Positions 1,160 to 7,044 of a DNA stretch of 20,349 bases are shown here, piece after piece. How positions within the stretch are numbered: position 1 is the first letter of the stretch; each line of letters opens with the position of its first letter. This DNA comes from an uncultured bacterium (GTDB lineage: Bacteria; Muiribacteriota; UBA6191): positions 1-20,349 of the forward strand of contig CAZDAM010000063.1 of the NCBI GenBank assembly GCA_964503595.1, read 5' to 3'. The notes beneath the pieces are model-generated. The model saw only the letters and a program-made list of their open reading frames with translations. It was not told the DNA's origin and did no database searches. The translations under genes were made by a program, and so were the position numbers.

Positions 1160-1221
1160 GCAGTCTCATTCAAGAGCAGAAAGAAGTTCTACCTGCTATG
1201 ATTTCTTTGGGCAGGTGAAAA

Positions 1222-1593
1222 ATGCGAAAAAAACTGATTCGTTTTGACTGGGCGATCAAGAAAATCTTTCGTGAAGTCTCCGCTCTTTACCCTGAATACC
1301 GGCTGATCAATGTGGCCCGTTTCAATGAAATCGCCCGGGTTCCGCTCGATGAACGGATTCATTTCTTAAAAACGGAAGAGATCAAGCCTGATTCTCAGGC
1401 TCCGGGTCTTCTGGATGTGGCCGAAGCCCTAAGCGTTTTAAAGCTCTCCGATAAGGACAGCCGTGCCTCCACTTTGGCCCTTCAGGATGGGATTCTATCT
1501 GAGGAACAGTTCAGGCATAAAATAAGGGAGAATCTAGGTCGGGGTTTTGATGATCTGGTGTATTCCTATCTTGAACCTTTGGAGGAAAAATGA
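1222..1593 (+). CDS. Hypothetical 123-aa protein with a C-terminal SHOCT-like motif (LALQDGILSEEQFRHKIRENL). It is the first gene of a coupled four-gene operon.
   Basis: ATG at 1222 follows AGGTGA. Its stop TGA (1591-1593) overlaps the ATG (1590) of the next gene. The L-x-x-G-x-L-S-x-E-E-F-x-x-K pattern resembles the SHOCT short C-terminal domain. Confidence 0.5.
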   Translation: MRKKLIRFDWAIKKIFREVSALYPEYRLINVARFNEIARVPLDERIHFLKTEEIKPDSQAPGLLDVAEALSVLKLSDKDSRASTLALQDGILSEEQFRHKIRENLGRGFDDLVYSYLEPLEEK

Positions 1594-2057
1594 TTGTTCT
1601 GGAAGAAGAACCGCTTCGGATTTTTCTACTCTGCGCCTTTATGGTTGCTGGTCTCAGCTCCAAGCTGATTCTGAATTCCCTGCTTCAGGCGATCAATCGA
1701 TACTGGTCTTTTCGTCGCCGTAAAGAGGGTTGGGAACCGCCGGAGCCGGAATCTGTCCACAAGGGATTTGCTCCACTTGGTTCGGAAATCATGCAGGAGC
1801 GCCTCAAAATGGTCTGGCGCAATGATCTGGAAAACTTTGTTCCGTTCTCAGGACTTTTTCTTTTCAGCGCTATGATGCTCTTGCCCCAGCATCTGCTTCA
1901 GGCCGTTCTGGCCATTTTTCTTGGAACACGCTTCTTGCATACACTGTCCCTTTTGGGGGGACTGCTTCCGCTAAGGGTTCTGTGCTATATCACCGGCCTG
2001 ATTCTTCAGATCCTGATGGTGCATTACATCCTTCTCGTGATTGCCTTTTTAAGCTGA
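1590..2057 (+). CDS. MAPEG-family (MGST/FLAP/LTC4S-like) integral membrane protein, 155 aa with about four TM helices.
   Basis: GGAGGA sits just upstream and the start overlaps the previous stop (ATGA). Hydrophobic helices flank the motif QERLKMVWRNDLENFVPF, which matches the MAPEG signature E-R-x-x-x-x-x-x-N-D-x-E-N-x-x-P-F (compare MGST1 ERVRRAHLNDLENIIPF). Confidence 0.6.
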   Translation: MIVLEEEPLRIFLLCAFMVAGLSSKLILNSLLQAINRYWSFRRRKEGWEPPEPESVHKGFAPLGSEIMQERLKMVWRNDLENFVPFSGLFLFSAMMLLPQHLLQAVLAIFLGTRFLHTLSLLGGLLPLRVLCYITGLILQILMVHYILLVIAFLS

Positions 2058-2059
2058 AG

Positions 2060-2494
2060 ATGAAATATAAATCTCCTCCTTTGAGAAAGAAGAATCCCGG
2101 TATGAAGATTGATGATTCGATTTCTCAACAGGATCGCCAGAGTCTTTGTGACAAGGTTCAGTATGTGGGAAACCCGGTGCATAAACGGAATCCGGGTGAT
2201 TTTGGCCTTATTCCTCCCAGTGCAGCGAAATATCCTAAGACACTTTGTGATCCTACGGGTATTTTTCGCAAGGAAGATGCGTTGAAGGTCATGCAGGATG
2301 GAATTCGCCACGGGCTTGTAAGTCAGAGTTATGAGGGGGAGTTTCCCCGCCTTGTCTGGGGTATTCATCATCATGGCGAGAGCTGTTTTGTGCTTGAGTT
2401 TCGTTTGGATTCAGTTCAGGGAACTTATCATGGATATCCTTTGCAGAAGATGGATGCTCGTTATCAGGAAGTTTTGAAGAAATGGAAAAACTGA
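2060..2494 (+). CDS. Hypothetical 144-aa Cys/His-containing protein (SLCD..TLCD..GIHHHGESC) with no recognisable family. The start is uncertain; ATG 2102 is an alternative.
   Basis: The ORF-track version (1982) overlaps the MAPEG gene by 76 nt. An internal ATG at 2060 lies 2 nt after the MAPEG stop, and another at 2102 has a purine-rich upstream. The 3' end overlaps the next gene by 13 nt. Confidence 0.4.
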   Translation: MKYKSPPLRKKNPGMKIDDSISQQDRQSLCDKVQYVGNPVHKRNPGDFGLIPPSAAKYPKTLCDPTGIFRKEDALKVMQDGIRHGLVSQSYEGEFPRLVWGIHHHGESCFVLEFRLDSVQGTYHGYPLQKMDARYQEVLKKWKN

Positions 2495-3759
2495 GTTTTT
2501 TGATTGACTGGCTGAATCCAGACCCGGCTGAAAAAAAATTGCTTTTGTCTTCGACAATGGCAGATTTTGGCTTGCGAGGGATGGGAAAAGATTTTTTTTC
2601 ACATCTGAATAGCCTGGATGGTGGCAAGAGAGTTCAGTCGAGGTTACAGACTTCTCTATATCTGGTAGGTGACTGGTTGTCCGAACATTTCTGGCGTATG
2701 GCATATGAACCTGCCAAAGGATATGATTTAGCTGAATCTTCTTATGATTGGTTAAGGGCTCATTGCATGGTTTCAATTGGCAGGGGGTATTGTTGGCCTC
2801 ATCTGTTTTTTTATGGAGATGGAGATTCAGTAACTGCTGAGCTAAAAAATTTTCCAAAAGAATCTGTGATTCCTCTTCACTTTATAGAGGAGGGAAGTGT
2901 CCAGATTTCTCATCAGGAGTTTTTTACTTTGGTGTTGGAGTTTCTGGGAAAAATTCAGGAGAGATTGAAAAGTCAGAAGCTTTCAGATGAAGGTTTTTCT
3001 TTGGATCTGAAAAGCCTTATAGAAGAATGGAAAGATATAGATTTTCATCAGTATCGTCGTTTGGAAGCCTGTATGGGATTGGGGATTGATGAAAATCCTG
3101 ATTTTGTAGGAAGCGTTTTATCCCTTTTTGATGAATCTTCCAGGCTGGAAGATGTCTGTGAAATTGTGAGTGATGTCAATTTGGATAGTTCTGGGTTAGC
3201 ACAACTTCAGGATACTTTTCAGATTTTGCGAGATAAAGCAAATTGTGATGTTTCGGTCCTGAAAAACTGGGATACATCTGGTGCAAAACCTTCGATTCAT
3301 ACTGCTTATCAGTGGGCCAGGATTCTAAGGGAAAAACTGGACATTGATTCAGGGGCGGTTTCTGAAAAGCATTTTTCCGATCTTTTACAACTCCAGGTTG
3401 GCAAGGGCTTGGAGAAATTACCAGAAAATGCATGCTTTGGTATGGGGGAATTTCAGCCGGATGGCAAGGGATCCCTTGTTCTGACAAAAAAGCACCCAAG
3501 CAGTAAGCGTTTTCAGTTAGCGCGGCTCATTGGAGATTTTGTGATGTCTCATCAGGATTCCAGTCTGCACATAGCGGGAGAAACCTATTCCATGCGTCAA
3601 AAGATGCAAAGAGCCTTTGCCGCAGAGTTTTTGTGCCCGGCAGCTGAGCTTGAATCTTCCTATGATCCCCGCAACCGGGAGGATTTTATTTCTTCCAAAG
3701 CGATAGAGTATTCCGTATCAGAACTCGTGATTCAGCATCAGGTAGACAATTCATTTTAG
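2482..3759 (+). CDS. Hypothetical 425-aa protein with a C-terminal ImmA/IrrE (DUF955)-like module in which the HEXXH and downstream Glu zinc-ligand positions are all substituted, so it is a predicted pseudo-metallopeptidase.
   Basis: ATG at 2482 has AGGAAG upstream and overlaps the upstream gene's end. The C-terminal KRFQLARLIGDFVMSH ... QRAFAAEFLCP aligns to the ImmA/IrrE pattern rFTLAHELGHlllH ... E-ANaFAAELLMP, with H>R, E>L, H>D and E>Q/R at the ligand positions. Confidence 0.65.
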   Translation: MEKLSFLIDWLNPDPAEKKLLLSSTMADFGLRGMGKDFFSHLNSLDGGKRVQSRLQTSLYLVGDWLSEHFWRMAYEPAKGYDLAESSYDWLRAHCMVSIGRGYCWPHLFFYGDGDSVTAELKNFPKESVIPLHFIEEGSVQISHQEFFTLVLEFLGKIQERLKSQKLSDEGFSLDLKSLIEEWKDIDFHQYRRLEACMGLGIDENPDFVGSVLSLFDESSRLEDVCEIVSDVNLDSSGLAQLQDTFQILRDKANCDVSVLKNWDTSGAKPSIHTAYQWARILREKLDIDSGAVSEKHFSDLLQLQVGKGLEKLPENACFGMGEFQPDGKGSLVLTKKHPSSKRFQLARLIGDFVMSHQDSSLHIAGETYSMRQKMQRAFAAEFLCPAAELESSYDPRNREDFISSKAIEYSVSELVIQHQVDNSF

Positions 3760-4955
3760 GGAGCCTGAATGATCATGTTTTCCACAACGAAGTTGGTGAC
3801 AACAGGTTGCTGAAACTGGGAGAAATTCAGCTGGGGTAAATCAAAAGTGGCCTTCAGGGAAACTCCCTTGAAGAAGTCTGCAGTTCCACCTGCTTTTGTA
3901 ATATAGGGCTGAATGGCGAAGTCCAGCCTCTGGGGCGAGTTGGAGCTAGCTCCATCCGTGGCATCACCATACCCTCCACTGGAATTCGGTGCATTGGTAA
4001 TAGATGCACTGTTTCCGGCAATCGTCCGGTAGCCGGCTGAGATGGAGGCGTTCAAAGGGATATAGGCTCCCATATTGCCCGCGGTTTCCGTTCTGATTTC
4101 AAAAGAAGGAGTATTGGCATAGGCATAATGCTCATTCGGGTTGGCTTGATTTCTCAGATCAAAACTGAAATTTCCGTTATAGCTCTGCAATTGGGAGAGC
4201 TGGGAGAGCTGAATCTTCAAAGCATCCGGCCAGTCGGCAAGATTAAAATCGGTCACAGGACTGATATAGGCAGTGGATCCCACAATTTTGGAAATGTAGC
4301 CGGGCTTGTCGCCAATTGCAATCTGGGGACGGTTCAGGCGGGAGGCACCACTTCTTGAAATGATGTCAAAGGTATTGGAAGGTCCCATGGCAATCCAGTA
4401 GGCCCGGTTTGGAGTCAGCTCCACCAGAGGGGAAACAGAAGTCAGGGAATTATAGAACTGGGTGGAAAGCTGATTTGGAGAATGGATGAAACCAAGCCAG
4501 CGGTTGCCTTCCACGGTCATAATGGCGTGAATATGACCAAGAGATGCGTGCTGGGCCACAAATGCCGAAGTGCTGATGGTGGTCTGGGTCAAAGCCCGAA
4601 GCTGCCAGCCATACCTGTATTCCAGGGCAGGGAAAGCTTCTGTACTACAGCCTGAATCCATGGCATAAGTCCATTCCTGATTCGCGGAGACATAGTAGCC
4701 GTCATAGGCCTTGAGGGATTGGATTGCGTTGTATGAAGTAGCGGTAGGAGTGCTGTTTCCGGAATAGTGCGTAAAAATGCGCGAAGTTCGGGATATATGC
4801 CAGGCCGAGGTGATTTTGGAGGCTCCGGCACCAAAGGCTGCTGTTGCGGTTCGCGTACAGGGCAGACTTACCAGGGTGGTTCCCGTGGGAAGGGCTGCTG
4901 TCTGGGTGATCCCGGAAAACAGCAGGCCGATAAGAGTGATGATGAAGCGATGCAT
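3756..4955 (-). CDS. Secreted Ser/Thr/Asn/Gly/Tyr-rich protein (399 aa), probably beta-rich, of unknown function.
   Basis: ATG at 4955 has AGAGGAA 5 nt upstream. The N-terminus MHRFIITLIGLLFSGITQTAALP is a signal peptide. Its stop overlaps the stop of the convergent 2482-3759 gene by 4 nt. Confidence 0.65.
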   Translation of the reverse strand: MHRFIITLIGLLFSGITQTAALPTGTTLVSLPCTRTATAAFGAGASKITSAWHISRTSRIFTHYSGNSTPTATSYNAIQSLKAYDGYYVSANQEWTYAMDSGCSTEAFPALEYRYGWQLRALTQTTISTSAFVAQHASLGHIHAIMTVEGNRWLGFIHSPNQLSTQFYNSLTSVSPLVELTPNRAYWIAMGPSNTFDIISRSGASRLNRPQIAIGDKPGYISKIVGSTAYISPVTDFNLADWPDALKIQLSQLSQLQSYNGNFSFDLRNQANPNEHYAYANTPSFEIRTETAGNMGAYIPLNASISAGYRTIAGNSASITNAPNSSGGYGDATDGASSNSPQRLDFAIQPYITKAGGTADFFKGVSLKATFDLPQLNFSQFQQPVVTNFVVENMIIQAP

Positions 4956-5075
4956 GGTATGTTCCTCTAAGAGCTTTTTTTAGGCTGACAGTGTACCGTA
5001 TTTGTAAATATTTCAAAAAAACAAGTTTGACCTGCTCGACGGATTTTACAAGTGGGGCATTCATGAGGGTGGAAA

Positions 5076-6983
5076 TTGGCTAAGCTGCGCGAAATGGAAA
5101 TCACCCTGGAGCCTGATTGGGTCGGGGATATTTTTGCCCTGCTGCCAGCAGATTTTTCCTGGGACAGGCTGCATTTTCTTCATTTTCAGAAAAGTGGTCT
5201 TTCGGAGTGGCTGGCCCAGCGCGAGGAAATTCTCTACGCCTTTGAGCGATCCTACCCACGTCTCCACGAAATCGTTTTTGATCCCCGCTATCAATCGGGT
5301 GCTCTTTGTCGGTACCAGGTGTCAGGGCATCCATTGGCAGATTCCAGAGTCATGGAGGAGAGCAATTATCAGCCTCCGGGAATGCTTGGATTCACCAATC
5401 AGACTCACTGGTCCGTGCTTCCTCCTTTATTGAAAAAGGGAGATGTATTTGAGTCGGGGGTGCTTCTGAATACTCACTCGATGAGGTCTTTTCCTCCTGC
5501 CTTCTACCGTAATTTTCAGATGAATTCTCCTTATGGGCTCTGGGTTGCGGTTTTGATTTCCAAGGAGATTGTAGAAGAGTTTCGGATTCATCCCTGGAAT
5601 CTGAGCTTTCTCATCGAAGGAGCAGAGATTGAGGAGGGGCAAGTATGGGTTTTTGAAATTCCGGGAGCCTCATTCATGAACGAGGAAAATCCTGAATTAT
5701 TGGGTCTTGATGATGATGAGTCAAGGCCACGGGTTCAGGTGAGCCGCATTTTGAACTGGCAGACCTGCCAGGAGTGGATGCGTCGGGAAGTCTGTTGGGA
5801 GAAGGAGCCCTGGAAGGAAGAGCTCGGGATTCCTGATGAGCTTCAGTCCGATTTGTTGGAGGAGGAGTCCCTGGAAGCCCAGGCGAGTCTTCTAACCCGC
5901 TATGTGGCAGAAGGGATTCGAAGCTTTGCAACGGGGCTGTCCTTTGAAGCCTGGCCAAATGAAGTGCTCAGGCGGGGTTATGGGAATCCTCTGGAAAAGG
6001 CTGTTTTGCTGAAGGCTTTGCTGGTTCAGCATCAGATTCCCTGCACTCTCATGATGGCTTCGGTCAATGCCAGTTCCATGGTGCCTTCCGAGTTGCCTCA
6101 TCTGGACTTTCCAAGGCCTCTGGTGAGCGTGGAGCTGACTCCGGGGCAGCGAAAAATTCTGGATCCTTCGATTCCGATCTGGGCTGGGCTTCGCAGTGAA
6201 CGGCACTGGGCAGGAGCGGAGATTCTACCTCTGGAGTCCAGTACGGTTCTGAAGCCGTTTCGGCTTTGGGTCTCTCCTTCGGAAGGCTCCAGTCTGAAAT
6301 GGGAGATTCAGTGGAAGGCCAGCGCCAGGGATGATGAGCTGGATTGGGTTCAGATTCGTGAAACTCTGGGAGGGGTAGAAGCGCGTCGTATTTTTGAACG
6401 CTGGGGTAAATGGGATTTGAAGGAGCTTGGCAACCATCGCCAGCAGGAACTCGATTTCTGTTTTATCCGGGGTTCGGAATTCAAACTCAAGCGCATCACT
6501 TTGGAGCGGGACGGGGAGTTTGCGATTCTTCAGATTGAAGGGGAGCTTCACCGGGGATTTCAGATTCTTTCCAACGGAAACCGGGTCCGGGGTTTCTGGT
6601 TTGCTCCGATTCGAGGGTATTTTCATACTCTCTATGGCAATGGAACCCGTACCAGAGGAATTCGCTGTGAGCCACTTGCCATGGAAATGGAGCTTGAATT
6701 TCAGCATTCCCAGATGGTTGAGATTCCGGTGGATCCGTTTCAGTGGTCGTATGAGGGTATGGATTTGACCTGGTCTCAGAAGTTTGAGGCCCCACAAAAA
6801 AAATCCCGGGCTGTGATGAATCTGGAAGTCAATCGCTTCAATCTTTCTCATGAGGCCTATTCTTCTCAGATGGAGCGGTTCAAGAACTGGGCGGATTCGG
6901 GTCTGCCGTTTTTCTGGGAATCCCGGCCCCCGATGCTGCGTCGGGTGATTGATTCCTGGAAGAATCTGTTCGGGATGAATTAA
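5076..6983 (+). CDS. Large cytoplasmic protein (about 635 aa) with a transglutaminase-like (papain-fold) core flanked by N- and C-terminal domains. The catalytic Cys position is occupied by Pro, so it is predicted to be non-catalytic.
   Basis: TTG at 5076 has GAGGGTGG 8 nt upstream; ATG 5094 is the alternative start. RRGYGNPLEKAVLLKALLVQHQIPCTLM matches the transglutaminase-like/DUF3858-type pattern G-x-G-x-C-x-D-x-A-x-L-L-x-A-L-L-R-A-x-G-I-P-A-R with C>P. There is no signal peptide. Confidence 0.55.
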   Translation: MAKLREMEITLEPDWVGDIFALLPADFSWDRLHFLHFQKSGLSEWLAQREEILYAFERSYPRLHEIVFDPRYQSGALCRYQVSGHPLADSRVMEESNYQPPGMLGFTNQTHWSVLPPLLKKGDVFESGVLLNTHSMRSFPPAFYRNFQMNSPYGLWVAVLISKEIVEEFRIHPWNLSFLIEGAEIEEGQVWVFEIPGASFMNEENPELLGLDDDESRPRVQVSRILNWQTCQEWMRREVCWEKEPWKEELGIPDELQSDLLEEESLEAQASLLTRYVAEGIRSFATGLSFEAWPNEVLRRGYGNPLEKAVLLKALLVQHQIPCTLMMASVNASSMVPSELPHLDFPRPLVSVELTPGQRKILDPSIPIWAGLRSERHWAGAEILPLESSTVLKPFRLWVSPSEGSSLKWEIQWKASARDDELDWVQIRETLGGVEARRIFERWGKWDLKELGNHRQQELDFCFIRGSEFKLKRITLERDGEFAILQIEGELHRGFQILSNGNRVRGFWFAPIRGYFHTLYGNGTRTRGIRCEPLAMEMELEFQHSQMVEIPVDPFQWSYEGMDLTWSQKFEAPQKKSRAVMNLEVNRFNLSHEAYSSQMERFKNWADSGLPFFWESRPPMLRRVIDSWKNLFGMN

Positions 6984-6995
6984 AACCAGGGAATG

Positions 6996-7031
6996 AAAAA
7001 AAGCCCCACCAGACTGGCGAGGCTGATTTTT
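6996..7031. terminator. Candidate bidirectional intrinsic terminator between the convergent genes 5076-6983 and 7045-8745.
   Basis: An A7 tract precedes the imperfect GC hairpin GCCCCACCAGACUGGCGAGGC, which is followed by UGAUUUUU. The stem has bulges, so this is a modest call. Confidence 0.3.
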
Positions 7032-7044
7032 CAACAGAAGTGAA

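Follow-up and report, generated by a model that had tools for sequence, protein, structure and literature searches.

A diverged DUF3857/transglutaminase-like protein with a disrupted catalytic triad in an uncultured bacterium

What remains of a transglutaminase-like protein when proline stands where the nucleophilic cysteine is expected? This question is raised by an open reading frame (ORF) located at positions 5076..6983 (+ strand) of a 20,349-nucleotide stretch of DNA from an uncultured bacterium of the Muiribacteriota (contig CAZDAM010000063.1), the whole of which is called the window hereafter. The ORF is complete, begins with TTG and encodes a protein of 635 amino acids (74 kDa, pI 5.3) devoid of signal peptide and transmembrane segment. 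The initial annotation, made without database searches, had singled out the peptide RRGYGNPLEKAVLLKALLVQHQIPCTLM (residues 299-326, bases 5970-6053, + strand), covering the nucleophile helix and its approach, as a transglutaminase-like motif with Pro replacing Cys. Peptide and Pro305 codon (CCT, 5988-5990) are located as described, and the extensions of "about 290" residues said to flank the motif measure 298 residues on the N-terminal side and 309 on the C-terminal side. The protein is very probably a true, catalytically disabled homologue of the DUF3857/transglutaminase/DUF3858 family.

Standard searches do not reveal this relationship. Pfam and NCBIfam yield no relevant match with the whole protein or with three segments of it, even at E <= 10. 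No Pfam family is hit by the whole protein at E <= 1, and the protein scores below the gathering thresholds of PF12969, PF01841 and PF12970, none of the three appearing on the segments at E <= 10. A phmmer search of all PDB sequences gives no match, a word-indexed search of 5.8 billion clusters finds only the protein itself, and scans of genome contig and metagenome contig collections return no relative. An exhaustive phmmer search of 1.84 billion representatives provides three matches. One (P0002) is a 117-aa fragment, 95% identical to query residues 117-233. Another, the 1786-aa repeat protein P0004, was judged spurious, a 42-residue stretch being matched over seven repeats. The sole remaining non-self match is P0003 (2061 aa; library-wide E = 5.4e-4, query residues 106-366), the nearest sequence relative with 25% identity over 284 residues. 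P0003 carries a signal peptide, a DUF3857 domain (E = 1.9e-12), a Transglut_core domain (23.4 bits for a gathering score of 23) and TPR repeats. Its core is intact, with the boxes GYGDCKDKSNLL, FDHCILAV and FCDPT, to which GYGNPLEKAVLL, FPRPLVSV and ILDPS of the query are aligned by BLASTP (E = 6e-13).

When the N-terminal 618 residues of P0003 are used as a query, 111 family members are retrieved through shared 5-residue words. Many of them are 630-680 aa long, and the sources label several as "transglutaminase-like putative cysteine protease" or "DUF3857 domain-containing protein". A profile (A1) was built from 61 sequences, the query being left out; DUF3857 is found in 61/61 of these relatives, Transglut_core in 56/61 and DUF3858 in 12/61. 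Against this profile, hhalign aligns the full query with 97.85% probability, E = 6.5e-13 and a score of 102.3 over 466 columns (query 112-602 versus profile 161-644 of 665). Thirty shuffled queries reach a best score of 25.4 and a lowest E of 0.023, the reversed query scores 16.6, and an unrelated 644-aa orphan ORF of a related genome obtains 0.07% probability. With the motif masked (residues 298-325), the match persists at E = 2.5e-8, and the core alone (256-400) gives E = 1.3e-9. The N-terminal part (1-255; E = 1.3e-3) and, weakly, the C-terminal part (401-635; E = 0.019) each align on their own in colinear register. Besides, 19 family members display colinear BLASTP matches to the query, some starting from query residue 67.

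From these comparisons, the protein is homologous to the DUF3857/transglutaminase/DUF3858 family over about 490 residues, at an identity of 13-17% to every relative. The transglutaminase-like similarity proposed by the initial annotation is thus recovered with the custom family profile, whereas Pfam itself remains mute. A chance resemblance, in which a coincidental amphipathic helix or a misregistered alignment would mimic the motif, fits the empty Pfam, NCBIfam and PDB sequence searches, permissive thresholds included. It is nevertheless effectively refuted, and extremely improbable, given the distance between the true match and the shuffle minimum, the survival of the match after masking, the library-wide phmmer value of P0003 and the common register of four alignment methods.

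The architecture follows that of the family. A DUF3857-like N-terminal domain covers approximately residues 67-250 (5274..5825, +); it is supported by hhalign, is mostly beta-strand in the structural model, and BLASTP and phmmer alignments to DUF3857 proteins begin at query residues 67, 68 and 106. Then comes the transglutaminase-like, papain-fold core (approximately residues 256-400; 5841..6275, +), and a C-terminal domain (approximately residues 401-602; 6276..6881, +) is colinear with the DUF3858-type C-terminal domain of the family. AlphaFold without a multiple sequence alignment gives an unusable prediction (pLDDT 34.5). Supplied with the alignment A2, made of the query and 68 relatives, it yields a model with a pLDDT of 76.2 and a pTM of 0.82, the pLDDT rising to 87-95 around residues 250-340. 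The first Foldseek match of this model in the PDB is 3KD4, the "putative protease BDI_1141" that is the founding structure of DUF3857 (E = 3.2e-17), aligned over 431/505 residues, whose three-domain fold the model resembles. It is followed by 3ISR, a transglutaminase-like putative cysteine protease, and by arylamine N-acetyltransferases. The family profile itself finds 3KD4 by sequence (E = 2e-27). The DUF3857-transglutaminase-DUF3858 layout suggested at the outset is thus supported by the domain content of the relatives and by the 3KD4 match, less firmly for the C-terminal domain taken alone. In the model, helix 305-318 starts at Pro305 and strand 347-355 at Arg347, which is where this fold canonically carries its nucleophile and its general base, respectively.

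The catalytic columns were counted in an L-INS-i alignment of the query and 112 relatives. The Gly, Asp, Cys and Lys that open the G-D-C-K-D-K box, as well as its final Lys, are found in 112/112 relatives, and its second Asp in 109 of 112. The query reads G303-N304-P305-L306-E307-K308, so that NPLEK (5985..5999, +) stands for the near-invariant DCKDK and only G303 and K308 are kept. Pro305 is placed in the Cys column by BLASTP, hhalign, MAFFT auto and MAFFT L-INS-i, and the identical G303 and K308 flank it. The catalytic His, present in all 112 relatives, is replaced by Arg347 (AGG, 6114..6116, +). The third residue of the triad is kept as Asp363 (GAT, codon checked, 6162..6164, +), in a column with Asp in 110 relatives and Glu in 2; S365 replaces the Thr carried by 110 of the 112, giving ILDPS instead of the family xxDPT. 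The Cys-His-Asp triad is consequently reduced to Pro305, Arg347 and Asp363. The Pro first noticed in the nucleophile position therefore holds up, and the replacement of the His and of the DCKDK box extends what had been noticed.

Profile comparison, alignment, model and 3KD4 match converge on a transglutaminase/papain fold with a disrupted triad. Family columns conserved at 85% or more number 27, and the query is identical at 15 of them (56%), compared with about 15% identity overall. The twelve changed columns include D304N, C305P, K306L, D307E, H347R, I349L, T365S, Y283S and G289S, whereas W228, V277, G303, K308, L311, L316, F345, D363, G371, L384 and R530 are among the positions retained. 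This contrast, with losses at the catalytic centre, indicates that the active site has been specifically abandoned while the fold was kept, rather than misalignment or uniform decay. Among the 113 aligned family members, the query alone lacks both the Cys and the His.

Such an abandoned site could in principle hide a relocated one. The superfamily offers documented precedents for active-site migrations and residue swaps (microbial transglutaminase, Bacillus Tgl, GP42, Atg4b; PMC10318531), and the protein keeps Asp363, has His342 five residues before Arg347 and contains Cys323 in the core. It might then still be an enzyme, whose active site has changed or whose chemistry is new, for example that of a non-thiol hydrolase. 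However, no Cys or Ser stands at or beside the helix N-terminus (G303-N304-P305-L306). Cys323, the sole core Cys, is some 18 helical residues (roughly 27 Å) distant from it and stands at the far end of helix 305-318. The changes affect four of the five DCKDK positions together with the His, Y283 and G289, which argues for a site abandoned rather than remodelled, and no other enzyme family is matched in the Pfam, NCBIfam and PDB sequence searches. The retention of enzymatic activity is thus very improbable, and the check for a triad elsewhere in the protein, which had been proposed with the original observation, returns none at the level of sequence.

The predicted location of the protein also departs from that of the family. 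Judged by a crude hydrophobicity test, 76/101 relatives have a signal-peptide-like N-terminus; the query has none, and its N-terminus is acidic (MAKLREMEITLEPDW) and its most hydrophobic 19-residue window scores only 1.34. The protein described as cytoplasmic in the initial annotation does lack both signal peptide and transmembrane segment, from which it follows that it probably stays in the cytoplasm, the location itself being deduced from these two absences. A non-catalytic factor exported by a signal-peptide-independent route, for instance as a secretion-system substrate, and binding its target outside the cell, would agree with the overwhelming occurrence of signal peptides among the relatives. 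It would also agree with the neighbouring genes, a secreted 399-aa orphan and an S41 peptidase having CPAF as its best, far sub-cut-off match. Yet the window contains no secretion-system gene, no secretion signal is recognizable, the N-terminus is acidic, and positive evidence for export is lacking, which makes this possibility very improbable.

The status of the gene has to be considered as well. An in-frame TGA at 5064-5066, directly 5' of the TTG start, makes a longer N-terminus impossible. A Shine-Dalgarno-like GAGGG (5066..5070, +), read from the sequence, lies 5 nt before the TTG and shares the last base of this TGA. The gene is divergent from the 399-aa gene (3756-4955, -), as reported initially for this Ser/Thr/Asn-rich signal-peptide protein, and convergent with the S41 peptidase gene (7045-8793, -). 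The spacer between the 399-aa and 635-aa genes measures 120 bp and displays one weak sigma-70-like match (4985-5012, +). Between the convergent genes, a GC-rich, terminator-like hairpin (7002..7024) is bordered by seven A on the left and five T on the right; it is called as a terminator on the - strand, whereas the + strand stem has two A-C mismatches followed by TTTTT. Located between its own upstream intergenic region and this shared hairpin, the gene is therefore monocistronic, and no operon partner hints at its function or ligand. Its GC content by codon position (0.59/0.40/0.56) resembles that of neighbouring genes, and its codon usage correlates with that of housekeeping genes at 0.55 in frame, as against 0.01 and 0.24 out of frame. 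An identical copy of the protein is found in three independent metagenome assemblies. The contigs concerned (L001-L003) match the window at more than 99.9% identity and are thus uninformative on selection.

The surroundings of the gene are partly conserved. Among 185,579 species representatives, the closest is the metagenome-assembled genome NORP72 (L004), labelled Candidatus Cloacimonadota by NCBI, with identities to the window of 61% for GlgP, 71% for the Met aminopeptidase and 55% for the S41 peptidase. Synteny extends over both flanks, with UbiD, a low-molecular-weight phosphatase, a short-chain dehydrogenase/reductase and an o161-like gene on one side, and the S41 peptidase, Met aminopeptidase and GlgP on the other. 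The stretch in between (window about 1160-7044, versus L004 9394-11590) is variable and contains in the window a MAPEG gene, a small ORF and the 425-aa, 399-aa and 635-aa genes. In NORP72, the same slot is occupied by one unrelated 644-aa orphan ORF without Pfam match, the sequence that served as hhalign control above; it was rejected as a diverged orthologue (BLASTP E = 1.3; hhalign probability 0.07%). The stretch resembles a lineage-variable islet of orphan genes. Its identification as a defence or phage island was rejected, as PADLOC and PHROGs give nothing for the query and the block is free of defence or phage signatures, transfer RNA or integrase.

In this setting, the protein might be viewed as an evolutionary relic, descended from a secreted protease, deprived of signal peptide and active site and drifting without function, no stop codon having arisen yet. 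The relic is consistent with an orphan that has, among 1.84 billion representatives, no companion save the 117-aa fragment, with the low identity to every relative, with a codon-usage fit poorer than that of the neighbours, and with a position between conserved synteny blocks where NORP72 carries an unrelated ORF. On the other hand, 635 open codons in DNA of about 50% GC would hardly be expected in the absence of selection ((61/64)^635 ~ 6e-14). Far from being random, the substitutions are concentrated at the catalytic centre, with 56% identity at the most conserved columns, all three domains are colinear with the family, and the Shine-Dalgarno-like element and the start codon are intact. Moreover, Cys to Pro and His to Arg (AGG) each need 2-3 nucleotide changes, which indicates that the inactivation is old, and the frame is open nonetheless. 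A relic is thus judged unlikely.

The reading that is favoured, with a moderate probability, is that of a highly diverged, catalytically dead member of the DUF3857/transglutaminase/DUF3858 family, acting in the cytoplasm as a non-catalytic binding or scaffold protein. Such a protein would perform no thiol-based protease, transglutaminase or deamidase chemistry, because the nucleophile and the base are both absent, on the assumption that the canonical triad operates in the family, itself a prediction. The former active-site cleft would instead hold a peptide or protein ligand, by analogy with known inactive transglutaminase-fold domains. By the same analogy, the protein would be a maintained binding protein, a view for which the chances are even or slightly better. 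A more detailed scenario is put forward only tentatively, according to which the scaffold of a secreted protease moved into the cytoplasm, lost its catalytic residues and was kept as a peptide-binding adaptor or regulator of one little-sampled marine lineage; in this scenario, Arg347, Glu307 and Asp363 may re-line the old cleft to form a charged site of recognition.

Several points weigh against an inactive and maintained binding protein. The parent family is itself without demonstrated activity, DUF3857 being named in only two papers and there in passing, and "dead" is thus to be understood relative to a predicted chemistry. The counts of 112/112 overstate the rarity of dead members because the relatives were gathered through shared 5-mers such as GDCKD and DCKDK; no second dead relative came out of the unbiased exhaustive phmmer search of the 1.84 billion representatives, made with the dead protein as query. 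The match to 3KD4 does not count as evidence separate from the sequence, the model having been derived from the family alignment. The lack of another active site is read from the sequence, and a spatially relocated site might escape such a reading. No full-length orthologue, in which Pro305 and Arg347 might be conserved, exists in any collection searched. Finally, codon adaptation is 0.55, compared with 0.77-0.91 in housekeeping genes, and the gene is located in a lineage-variable stretch, two features that also fit a gene of little importance.

The neighbouring genes have features of their own. The 425-aa ORF (2482-3759, +), presumably the first of the two pseudoenzymes counted in the initial annotation, resembles Peptidase_M78/IrrE (Pfam E = 0.052, 13.8 bits for a cut-off of 22) and RmrA of PADLOC (E = 5.8e-4) over its C-terminal 90 residues, in both cases below threshold only; by eye, LARLIGD stands where HExxH is expected. 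Its codon usage differs from that of the rest of the window (correlation 0.05, GC content at third positions 0.376), so it may be foreign, and its 3' end overlaps that of the convergent 399-aa gene by 4 bases (3756-3759). The 399-aa ORF (3756-4955, -) is a signal-peptide orphan rich in Ser, Thr and Asn, with no match in Pfam, NCBIfam, PADLOC or PHROGs. The 582-aa ORF (7045-8793, -) is the S41 peptidase, with PDZ and Tricorn_C1-like parts. In NCBIfam it matches best the secreted protease CPAF of chlamydiae, at 64.8 bits, far under the cut-off of 250, and in the PDB it hits the CT_858 structures. It looks catalytically competent because, in alignment with S41 enzymes of solved structure, its Ser motif GGCYSTTD coincides with the active-site region. 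The 476-aa ORF (9010-10440, +) combines SPFH/Band 7 with a major-vault-protein "shoulder" domain (PF11978, E = 7.4e-7). NORP72 lacks this gene at the syntenic position and has a major facilitator superfamily transporter nearby instead. GC skew is positive in every 1-kb window of 1-20349 whatever the gene orientation, and the cumulative skew climbs steadily to 2.0, which points to a single replichore for the whole window, with + as the leading strand.

Compared with known systems, the 635-aa protein is closest to the family typified by 3KD4 (BDI_1141 of Parabacteroides distasonis; PF12969-PF01841-PF12970), with which it shares homology across the architecture and the three-domain fold. It differs by Pro305, Arg347, the NPLEK box, Y283S and G289S, by the lack of a signal peptide, by falling below Pfam thresholds and by its 13-17% identity. 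Because it lacks the defining catalytic features of the family and scores below its Pfam thresholds, it is classified as an inactivated, highly diverged variant of the DUF3857/transglutaminase/DUF3858 lineage and not as an ordinary member. Its nearest relatives, the P0003 clade, have an intact triad, a signal peptide and a large helical-repeat partner, either fused, as in the 2061-aa secreted P0003 with its long TPR-like region, or adjacent. Indeed, the locus L084 (6001-12082) encodes a 662-aa DUF3857-transglutaminase protein (P0007) followed by a 1354-aa ORF without Pfam match that is homologous to P0003 residues 694-1258 (E = 2e-19). The active enzymes of this clade thus appear, from gene fusion and adjacency, to work with a large helical-repeat or TPR-like partner; such a partner was searched for in the window and on the 27-kb contig L001, and none was found. 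LapG (BTLCP), 3ISR, TglA, TgpA and PeiW, bacterial cysteine proteases or enzymes of transglutaminase-like type that are active, also differ from the query: they possess an intact Cys-His-Asp triad, are periplasmic or secreted, act on defined substrates and are devoid of DUF3857/DUF3858 flanks.

Pseudoenzymes of the transglutaminase/papain fold are an established category, well documented in eukaryotes. Peptide binding is the role described for the inactive transglutaminase-like domains of Rad4, Cyk3, CC2D2A and CEP76, and inactive forms further include EPB42 and FBXO21 (PMC3495828; PMC10318531). These proteins (Rad4/XPC, Cyk3, CC2D2A/MKS6, CEP76, EPB42 and FBXO21) are eukaryotic, belong to other branches of the superfamily and have other partner domains (BHD, C2, F-box). 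The inactivation of the 635-aa protein is independent of theirs, and the likeness concerns a possible mode of action, not the family. Strong conservation of the triad is reported for the transglutaminase-like domains of prokaryotes (PMC3495828), and a bacterial transglutaminase-like protein that is dead and probably internalized is a clear and mildly unusual counter-example to this retention.

The wider significance is limited, with no orthologue found, no genomic partner and no long-standing question hanging on this protein, which is not a new kind of system. It nonetheless provides a practical case in which Pfam, NCBIfam and PDB sequence searches are blind and in which assignment required one exhaustive search, then a custom profile. 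If the protein is truly a cytoplasmic adaptor, it would represent a documented prokaryotic counterpart of Rad4/XPC, protein 4.2 and CEP76, as well as the first case of inactivity recorded among DUF3857 proteins.

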